Below are positions 60,403 to 60,715 of a stretch of 64,000 bases of DNA, piece by piece (the stretch's first letter is position 1; each line of letters starts with the position of its first letter). Source of the DNA: Rhodothermales bacterium. Lineage in GTDB: Bacteria; Bacteroidota; Rhodothermia; Rhodothermales; VXPQ01. Location of the stretch: the NCBI GenBank assembly GCA_040904565.1, contig JBBDTI010000083.1:12543-76542 (forward strand), given 5' to 3'. A program made the translations under genes and the position numbers. Under the pieces are notes generated by a model. It saw nothing but the letters and a program-made list of their open reading frames with translations, did not search any database and had not been told where the DNA came from.

Positions 60403-60545
60403 TAGGAAGTGGTCTGGTGGAATTGCAACGCGACGTTCCGTTCCCGGCCACGTCTCGGTCCCTCAGATTCGTCTGATGAGCCGTGGCGGTGACAAAAGAC
60501 CTCGAAATTAATAGATCAACCTATTACGTGCATCGCTCAACGCCC

Positions 60546-60644
60546 ATGATGTTGTGCTCCGCCGTCGACGGCTGTTGCTGTTGCTGTATGGATAGCCACA
60601 CCCAGGCGGAGTTGAGCGATGCGATGATCCGATTCGTTTGTTGA
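60546..60644 (+). CDS. Poly-cysteine leader peptide (32 aa, MMLCSAVDGCCCCCMDSHTQAELSDAMIRFVC)
   Basis: TGT TGC TGT TGC TGT at 60573-60587; lies upstream of a terminator and the cysH operon; in-frame GTG starts also exist at 60483, 60489 and 60528. Confidence 0.75.
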   Translation: MMLCSAVDGCCCCCMDSHTQAELSDAMIRFVC

Positions 60645-60674
60645 TGCAGTCTTAACTGTACGACGACCAGTCAG

Positions 60675-60715
60675 AAAAGCCCGCTCACCTCGCTGAGGTG
60701 AGCGGGCTTTTTTTT
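60675..60715 (+). terminator. Intrinsic terminator in the 5' leader of the cobA-cysH operon (attenuator)
   Basis: aaaagcccgctcacctc-gct-gaggtgagcgggc followed by T8. Confidence 0.9.

Follow-up and report, generated by a model that had tools for sequence, protein, structure and literature searches.

In a Rhodothermales bacterium (contig JBBDTI010000083.1, assembly GCA_040904565.1), the cobA-cysH-sirC operon is preceded by a short open reading frame (sORF) with five tandem cysteine codons and by an intrinsic terminator. The question raised by this locus is whether these parts act together as a switch and, if so, what is sensed. The analysed DNA comprised 64,000 nucleotides (nt), referred to as the window; coordinates without a contig label are window coordinates and refer to the + strand unless stated otherwise. 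Based on comparison and folding of the sequence, region 60527-60715 was interpreted, with a probability of roughly 85%, as a ribosome-mediated, Cys-tRNA-sensing transcription attenuator governing read-through into cobA-cysH-sirC. The sequence-level features of the trp/his-type attenuator class are present: an sORF, clustered Cys codons, a terminator and an antiterminator that excludes it. An attenuator had already been proposed in a preliminary description of the locus, and that interpretation is supported by the parts themselves and their conservation, by the constrained placement of the sORF stop, by pairings that exclude each other and by covariation. The cobA leader is most likely one of a set of three in this genome, together with leaders preceding a sulfite reductase gene and a cysM-JAB-cysO/moeZ operon, and the device is most likely conserved across Rhodothermales.

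Anatomy of the cobA leader

The sORF was read from ATG 60546 to TGA 60642-60644, and its product MMLCSAVDGCCCCCMDSHTQAELSDAMIRFVC contains 7 Cys and 4 Met residues. Following a spacing of 30 nt from the stop codon to position 60675, the terminator consists of an A4 tract (60675-78), a stem (60679-91/60695-60707), a loop (60692-94) and a U8 tract (60708-15). Its stability was calculated at -27 to -30 kcal/mol, or -32.7 kcal/mol as a duplex including the A:U pairs. From 60715, another 180 nt lead to the cobA start codon, ATG 60895. Upon re-reading, the sORF, Cys run, terminator and both spacings given in the preliminary description proved exact to the base.

Segment 2 of the leader can take part in two exclusive structures. 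In the first, termed P1, it is held by two upstream strands. The outer strand 60530-41 (gcatcgctcaac) is the exact 12-bp reverse complement of 60611-22; the duplex 60527-41:60611-26 has a calculated energy of -22.1 kcal/mol and outer P1 is present in the minimum free energy (MFE) fold. The inner strand 60557-63 is the exact complement of 60605-11 (-16.4 kcal/mol). Both pairings had been noted before, as 12 bp with segment 1 and 7 bp with ctccgcc. In the second structure, the antiterminator, segment 2 (60604-23) pairs with 60679-94, comprising the 5′ arm of the terminator, over 14 bp with small interior loops. The energy of this duplex, which had likewise been described earlier, is -18.3 kcal/mol, the best value when compared with 20 swapped arms from other operon classes. 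For the 201-nt leader as a whole, the MFE amounts to -92.6 kcal/mol (z = -7.78), and none of 200 shuffled sequences was as stable.

The possibility that the terminator marks the end of an upstream gene was rejected. It closes no such gene, because the nearest long upstream ORF (58611-59948) lies on the - strand. In the region of about 580 nt directly 5′ of the leader (59949-60526), no convincing ORF was seen. On the + strand, neither the stretch from 60403 to the sORF nor the spacer separating terminator and cobA contained a promoter-like site in a sigma-70 consensus scan, Bacteroidota-type motifs being judged by eye only; the sole sigma-70-like site on this strand was located at 60374-60402. 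Within the spacer between terminator and cobA, a perfect 11-bp hairpin with a 13-nt loop is found at 60809-60843 (+), without a U run after it. Each of its arms occurs only twice in the genome and therefore does not belong to a repeat family.

The operon itself was confirmed using protein family models. In agreement with the earlier cobA-cysH-sirC assignment, these gave a methyltransferase, a phosphoadenylyl-sulfate/adenylyl-sulfate ((P)APS) reductase and a siroheme enzyme of the CysG N-terminal type, with the cysH start overlapping the cobA stop by 4 nt. All features are listed in Table 1.

Table 1. Positions of the leader elements, the controlled genes and related leaders elsewhere in the genome.
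Feature	Position	Strand	Basis or remark
Segment 1, 5′ strand of outer P1 stem	60527-60541	+	just 5′ of the sORF start codon
Leader-peptide sORF MMLCSAVDGCCCCCMDSHTQAELSDAMIRFVC, 32 codons + TGA	60546-60644	+	read directly; Cys-rich orthologues in 5 other genomes
ctccgcc, 5′ strand of inner P1 stem	60557-60563	+	exact complement of 60605-11; would sit under a ribosome stalled on the Cys run
Regulatory codons TGT TGC TGT TGC TGT	60573-60587	+	five Cys codons in tandem
Segment 2, 3′ strand of P1 or 5′ strand of antiterminator	60604-60623	+	mimics the 3′ arm of the terminator
Middle hairpin containing the sORF stop codon	60631-60671	+	enclosed by the antiterminator helix; present in folds
Intrinsic terminator (A4, G+C-rich 13-bp stem, 3-nt loop, U8)	60675-60715	+	sequence and consensus scan
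cobA, uroporphyrinogen-III C-methyltransferase, first operon gene	60895-61701	+	NF004790 307.5 bits (cut-off 198); TIGR01469 297.6 bits; PF00590
cysH, phosphoadenylyl-sulfate/adenylyl-sulfate reductase	61698-62426	+	NF002537 253.7 bits (cut-off 154); TIGR00434; PF01507
sirC-like, siroheme synthase N-terminal domain type (precorrin-2 dehydrogenase/ferrochelatase)	62434-63126	+	TIGR01470 115 bits (cut-off 62.3); PF13241, PF10414, PF14824
Second leader	C79:76720-76890	-	nine tandem Cys codons, probable GTG start, then terminator
Third leader MMPMIVIRIPYMPTAACCCCCSNACAPCVPVVGDGFKRRSS	C84:44211-44400	-	five Cys codons (MMPMIVIRIPYMPTAACCCCCSNACAPC...), then terminator
Candidate pheS attenuator, sORF MSQRQTQRFFFLRPSFL with FFF	C36:8258-8443	+	terminator 37 nt after the stop; then PheS (TIGR00468, 314.6 bits)

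Reading frame and occurrence of poly-Cys leaders

Reading frame was analysed in 49 unique leaders, carrying 4-9 Cys codons per leader window. In the Cys frame, the distance from the stop codon to the terminator stem was 8-45 nt (median 31; 34 in the cobA leader) and fell between 23 and 45 nt in 48 of the 49 leaders. The first stop codons of the other two frames were scattered from -201 to +103 nt relative to the stem, with 47 of 98 lying within 0-60 nt. An in-frame start codon was present in 47 of 49 leaders, and in 45 of 49 this was an ATG. These values bear on the possibility that the run acts as RNA, the UGY triplet repeat being the binding site of a TRAP-like oligomeric RNA-binding protein, or of a ligand, which chooses between terminator and antiterminator. 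The regularity of the repeat, and the lack of a Shine-Dalgarno-like sequence before the sORF, would fit such a site. A binding repeat, however, needs neither an in-frame start nor a stop codon at a set distance from the stem, and the runs are broken only by whole codons (e.g. CCCCCCPCCC and CCGCMCCC). Moreover, the encoded amino acid is the product of the pathway in all three operons, and no Rfam family matches. A protein- or ligand-operated switch was consequently considered very unlikely, and translation by a ribosome that reads Cys codons is the preferred explanation of the run.

To place the run in the context of the host genome (4,020,002 bp in 95 contigs, 61.5% G+C), tandem TGY codons were counted in any frame. 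At least four were found at 20 sites and at least five at only 4 sites. Three of the latter 4 are sORF-plus-terminator leaders located directly before cysteine-pathway operons. Conversely, among 256 strict terminators in the genome, only 3 come after a short frame in which a stretch of 8 codons includes 5 or more for Cys, and these are the terminators of the cobA leader and of the leaders on contigs C79 and C84. A relaxed scan started from 315 runs of at least three TGY codons and required a short frame, a stop codon and a terminator within 60 nt; it passed 9 runs, being the same 3 leaders and 6 runs inside ORFs of at least 150 amino acids (aa) in another frame. The negative control consisted of 80 cobA loci from metagenomes (45-60% identity); 3 of them were flagged, and none of these was convincing. 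Chance origin of the leader was rejected on the basis of these genome-wide counts and this control.

Downstream of the C79 leader lies a cysteine synthase gene (TIGR01138 cysM, 361.9 bits, slightly below cut-off; PF00291), followed by a gene for a JAB-domain (desampylase-like) protein and by a ThiS-ThiF-rhodanese fusion (cysO/moeZ). We take this gene set to resemble the CysM/CysO/Mec+ route of M. tuberculosis. The C84 leader precedes the gene for an 830-aa NirA/sulfite-reductase-type protein, which is about 250 residues longer than the matched family models. A classical-looking leader also precedes pheS on contig C36, which makes ribosome-mediated attenuation plausible in this organism.

With 7 Cys in 32 residues, the sORF might alternatively encode a functional Cys-rich micropeptide, either metal- or redox-binding or the precursor of a peptide that is made on ribosomes and modified afterwards (RiPP), with a terminator of its own and a shared function rather than attenuation as its link to the operon. 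In this respect, the peptide stretch following the Cys run (CAEPSGADTSR) is conserved in three genera. At the RNA level, however, the same stretch coincides with the pairing partner of the terminator arm and of P1, and the three leaders of this genome are alike only in the Cys run. The design recurs before three operons of one pathway, each time with a terminator separating sORF and enzymes. Codon choice is a further argument. The Cys runs strongly prefer TGT, which is rare in this G+C-rich genome: TGT makes up 14 of 19 run codons (74%) in the three own leaders and 180 of 280 (64%) in all 49, compared with 23% of Cys codons in host ORFs of at least 400 aa, where Cys accounts for 0.76% of codons. 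Such a preference would be odd for an expressed product. A micropeptide gene was judged to be as improbable as a protein-binding site, and a regulatory role of the Cys codons is preferred.

Relatives were examined in a set of 41 genomes including the host, covering its own family and 22 other families of the order. Among 28 cobA loci, 6 had a Cys-rich sORF with a terminator immediately 5′ of the gene (own genome, G002, G005, G006, G030 and G020), the terminator being found in all 6 leaders of this type. At most other cobA loci, a sulfite reductase gene of ~500 aa abuts cobA. When an extra 5 kb of upstream sequence was examined, a poly-Cys sORF and terminator were found in G001 and G019 before the sulfite reductase gene heading the operon. 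Orthologues of the 830-aa sulfite reductase were preceded by sORF and terminator in 8 of 9 loci. For cysM, the sORF was found in 14 of 18 loci, and in 12 of these 14 a terminator was detected by script. The script missed G004 and G001; locus L092, which encodes the same peptide as G004, has a terminator. Cys-codon runs in orthologous leaders had been suggested as a check in the preliminary description; the runs were found, and the terminator is conserved along with them.

Named database records were also searched for cysM leaders, all counts resting on record titles. Of the 17 loci titled Rhodothermales, Rhodothermaceae, Salinivenus, Salinibacter or Roseithermus, 16 carried sORF and terminator, and the single miss had only 231 nt of upstream sequence. 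Roseithermus sacchariphilus (L095) has a leader of the cysM type with peptide MRFITRCCCCCCPCCC... Among 28 loci with Pyrinomonadaceae in the title, 6 had the pair as well, as did 1 titled Acidobacteriota. No sORF-plus-terminator pair was present at the named cysM loci titled Tepidisphaeraceae, Phycisphaerales or Kryptoniota. In the NCBI taxonomy, Rhodothermales are placed in Rhodothermota and Pyrinomonadaceae in Acidobacteriota. Finally, 201 genomes were sampled evenly from the phylum as delimited in the taxonomy used, and 23 of them encode a close CysM. All 7 genomes of the order among these 23 carried the leader, the one at L187 being missed by the script and plain on inspection. Three other genomes showed variants: in two of these the sORF ended in CCCC(C)-stop, with no canonical terminator found by script, and in the third, three Cys codons were present and the stop was followed by a terminator at a distance of about 31 nt.

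The two sORFs without a canonical terminator are located 5′ of cysM at L190 (G071) and L191 (G048), in other families of the phylum, and end in CCCC-stop or CCCCC-stop. At L191, the 5′ arm of a 13-bp hairpin is made up of the Cys codons, its partner being the sequence directly past the stop. These sORFs may represent a different variant, either two-state or translational.

Loci L173-L176, L178-L180 and L183-L186, all from a single genus of the host's family, retain clusters of sulfite reductase-cobA-cysH or of cysH without a poly-Cys leader, and regulation there must differ. No close orthologue of the 830-aa sulfite reductase or of this CysM was found in that genus.

The proposed switch and its weak points

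Pairing between segment 2 and the terminator arm was compared in 26 leaders. The mean energy of the antiterminator duplex was -17.0 kcal/mol, versus -12.8 kcal/mol for dinucleotide shuffles (Wilcoxon p = 2e-7) and -14.2 kcal/mol when the arm was taken from another operon class (p = 2e-5); both p-values overstate the support because related genomes are not independent. An equivalent of segment 2 is conserved in G002, G005 and G006. For simulation of the stalled state, the RNA was cut at the leading edge of a ribosome positioned on the first Cys codon and before the 3′ arm of the terminator. Under these conditions, the antiterminator was part of the MFE fold in 9 of 11 leaders shown, including the cobA leader of this genome.

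Covariation was assessed in 22 cysM leaders by an alignment-free motif and energy test, as the MAFFT alignment lost the register of segment 2. When the core of the terminator arm reads CCCCT, the segment 2 region contains GGGG in 8 of 10 leaders and an AGAGG-like motif in none of 10; of the 12 leaders with a CCTCT core, 10 contain an AGAGG-like motif there and none contains GGGG. In the cobA class, where only 4 close and 2 distant sequences could be compared, the RNAalifold consensus of the four close leaders, each from a different genus, kept P1, the middle hairpin and the terminator, and 7 of 56 pairs were changed on both sides. The covariation check suggested in the preliminary description thus had a positive outcome: across leaders the pairing is better than in shuffles, it co-varies with the terminator arm, and P1 is kept in four genera.

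Based on these structures, the following mechanism is proposed. Transcription would start somewhere 5′ of 60527, and the 32-codon sORF would be translated while RNA polymerase advances. When Cys-tRNA is ample, the ribosome would pass the five Cys codons, cover segment 2 and head for the stop codon at 60642. Because the ribosome runs over segment 2, this segment could not pair with the terminator 5′ arm; the 13-bp terminator would form and transcription would stop at the U8 tract. Without translation, P1 (60527-41 and 60557-63) would lock segment 2 and termination would again result. When Cys-tRNA is scarce, the ribosome would stall at 60573-87, leaving segment 2 free to pair with 60679-94 as the antiterminator. 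The polymerase would then continue, and (P)APS reductase and siroheme synthesis would rise. During the stall, the outer P1 strand would have to be kept unpaired, either by sterics of the stalled ribosome or by a second ribosome queued on the start codon. As the AUG is located 27 nt, or about one footprint, before the Cys run, a second ribosome positioned on it could cover 60530-41. In short, we infer that the sORF is translated, that the ribosome stalls and is coupled to the polymerase, and that the outer P1 strand stays unpaired during the stall.

Several observations weigh against the attenuator interpretation. The first concerns the stall itself, for which it had been claimed that a stalled ribosome frees segment 2. 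The inner 7-bp stem (60557-63:60605-11) is covered by the stalled footprint and removed. The outer 12-bp stem is not covered: after masking a 31-nt footprint, the outer-P1 state (-42.5 to -47.5 kcal/mol) is favoured by 7-9 kcal/mol over the antiterminator state (-35.4 to -38.2 kcal/mol), in an energy model with no penalty for a helix that closes around a ribosome. The switch consequently needs the added steric or second-ribosome assumption, since footprint masking alone leaves segment 2 in outer P1. Secondly, the antiterminator of the cobA leader stands out by a modest margin only, 22 of 300 shuffles matching its duplex energy (1, 2 and 9 of 300 were as good in the close cobA leaders, and 0 of 300 in G020), and the relatedness of the genomes reduces the weight of the comparison across leaders.

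Other points concern the leader itself and its distribution. No Shine-Dalgarno-like sequence is seen 5′ of the sORF when the leader is read directly, and its start codon is ambiguous: besides ATG 60546, a GTG at 60483 lies in frame and would yield 53 aa. The alignment with relatives favours the ATG. The 180-nt spacer before cobA, with its extra 11-bp hairpin (60809-43), is not explained by the model. Leaders were also missing where they might be expected. None was found at the sulfite reductase-cobA-cysH cluster in the 11 loci of the same-family genus mentioned above, upstream of the cobA clusters of G004 and G031, or upstream of the sulfite reductase gene of G034, which is the single miss among the nine loci. 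The ATP sulfurylase and cysD genes, which are located elsewhere in the host genome, likewise have no such leader in the available sequence.

Relation to known systems and significance

Leader-peptide attenuators are well known in enterobacteria (trpL, hisL, leuL, thrL, pheL and ilvL; Rfam Trp_leader RF00513, Thr_leader RF00506 and Leu_leader RF00512). Similarly to these, the cobA leader has a short ORF with tandem codons for the end product, followed by an intrinsic terminator with 1:2/2:3/3:4 pairings, and the stop codon lies at a fixed short distance before the terminator. Unlike these, it senses cysteine according to the proposed mechanism, its host belongs to Rhodothermales, it lacks a Shine-Dalgarno-like sequence, and the outer 5′ strand of stem 1:2 sits 5′ of the start codon instead of under the regulatory codons. 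There is no sequence similarity either, as the Rfam hits to these leaders reached 20-23 bits versus gathering thresholds of 41-55 and covered the terminator only. A search of region 59900-60950 against Rfam 15 gave 17 hits at E up to 10, none at gathering (best 25.1 bits versus 50), and the two other leader loci gave 0 hits at gathering. An earlier study of attenuation by Vitreschak et al. from 2004 reportedly treats other amino acids only.

Closer to the present case in the amino acid sensed are the poly-Cys sORFs of mycobacteria. In the part of the report that is accessible, these are leaderless and act translationally, the Cys tract pairing with the Shine-Dalgarno region of the next gene, and a transcriptional reporter did not respond to cysteine (Canestrari et al., Mol Microbiol 2020, 10.1101/834739). 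Tandem Cys codons in an upstream ORF (uORF), and the occurrence of several cysteine operons as a regulon, are common to both systems as far as that text describes them; here, in contrast, the sORF is followed by a canonical terminator, whose arm is the partner of the switch segment. The same authors, in the available text, call uORF-mediated attenuation for cysteine previously undescribed (10.1101/834739). By analogy, a stall at the Cys run might unmask the ribosome-binding site of the next gene, with the hairpin and U-tract as a mere stabiliser or the end of a small RNA, a reading to which the two Bacteroidota-group genomes with CCCC(C)-stop sORFs and no terminator found by script would also conform; it is the least probable of the alternatives, since some 300 nt separate the Cys run from the cobA start, and in no fold of the leader is the run paired with the ribosome-binding region of cobA. 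Moreover, the 13-bp stem, rich in G+C and followed by U8, is an intrinsic terminator of canonical form that all leader classes have kept, and segment 2 pairs with the terminator arm rather than with a ribosome-binding site.

Transcription attenuation, as preferred here, also has partial parallels. For Actinobacteria, a prediction from comparative genomics placed short ORFs containing Cys-codon runs upstream of cys/cbs operons (Seliverstov et al. 2005, PMC1262725). They resemble the Rhodothermales leader in this arrangement, and differ from it in the phylum and in being reported, in the accessible sections, without terminator hairpins and with a suggested dependence on Rho. For Rhodobacterales, the motif uORFC-8-2 upstream of cysS was predicted to act as a ribosome-mediated attenuator: its uORF includes Cys codons, and its terminator stem is accompanied by a U run (Brewer et al. 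2021, PMC8632094). It contains only two Cys codons, controls cysteinyl-tRNA synthetase and belongs to alphaproteobacteria, and the available portion of that article describes no multi-operon set. The main text of Naville and Gautheret 2010 (PMC2965389), in its accessible form, does not include a cysteine attenuator, and the accessible text of PMC13236596 cites only the mycobacterial translational case for cysteine. In the literature searched, with most subscription journals outside reach, no poly-Cys terminator attenuator was found for Rhodothermota, Bacteroidota or Acidobacteriota, in line with the earlier statement that none was described in Rhodothermota/Bacteroidota, nor was any classical terminator-based leader-peptide attenuator of cysteine biosynthetic operons. 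Relative to the known class, the new elements are cysteine sensing, the set of three operons, the lineages and the unusual geometry of one stem strand.

Taken together, a broader model is slightly favoured on the sequence evidence. According to this model, assimilatory sulfate reduction and CysO-dependent cysteine synthesis of Rhodothermales would form a Cys-tRNA attenuation regulon, with three leaders in the present genome. Among attenuators of cysteine biosynthetic operons, this would be the first of the classical type with a terminator. The design would be present in Rhodothermales and Acidobacteriota (Pyrinomonadaceae), by independent origin or transfer, with a terminator-less CCCC-stop variant in other lineages of the Bacteroidota group. 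It would be tuned by the rare, wobble-read TGT codon, and a queued ribosome or sterics would mask the upstream strand. The location of a stem strand 5′ of the start codon makes the leader a testable case for disome-dependent attenuation. A poly-Cys sORF followed by a terminator would offer a simple annotation signature for cysteine-regulated operons, and the leaders could serve as compact cysteine-responsive parts for the engineering of thermophiles and halophiles. For the order itself, a trp/his-style device placed before three operons of one pathway and found order-wide is a candidate answer to how sulfate assimilation is controlled in Rhodothermales.

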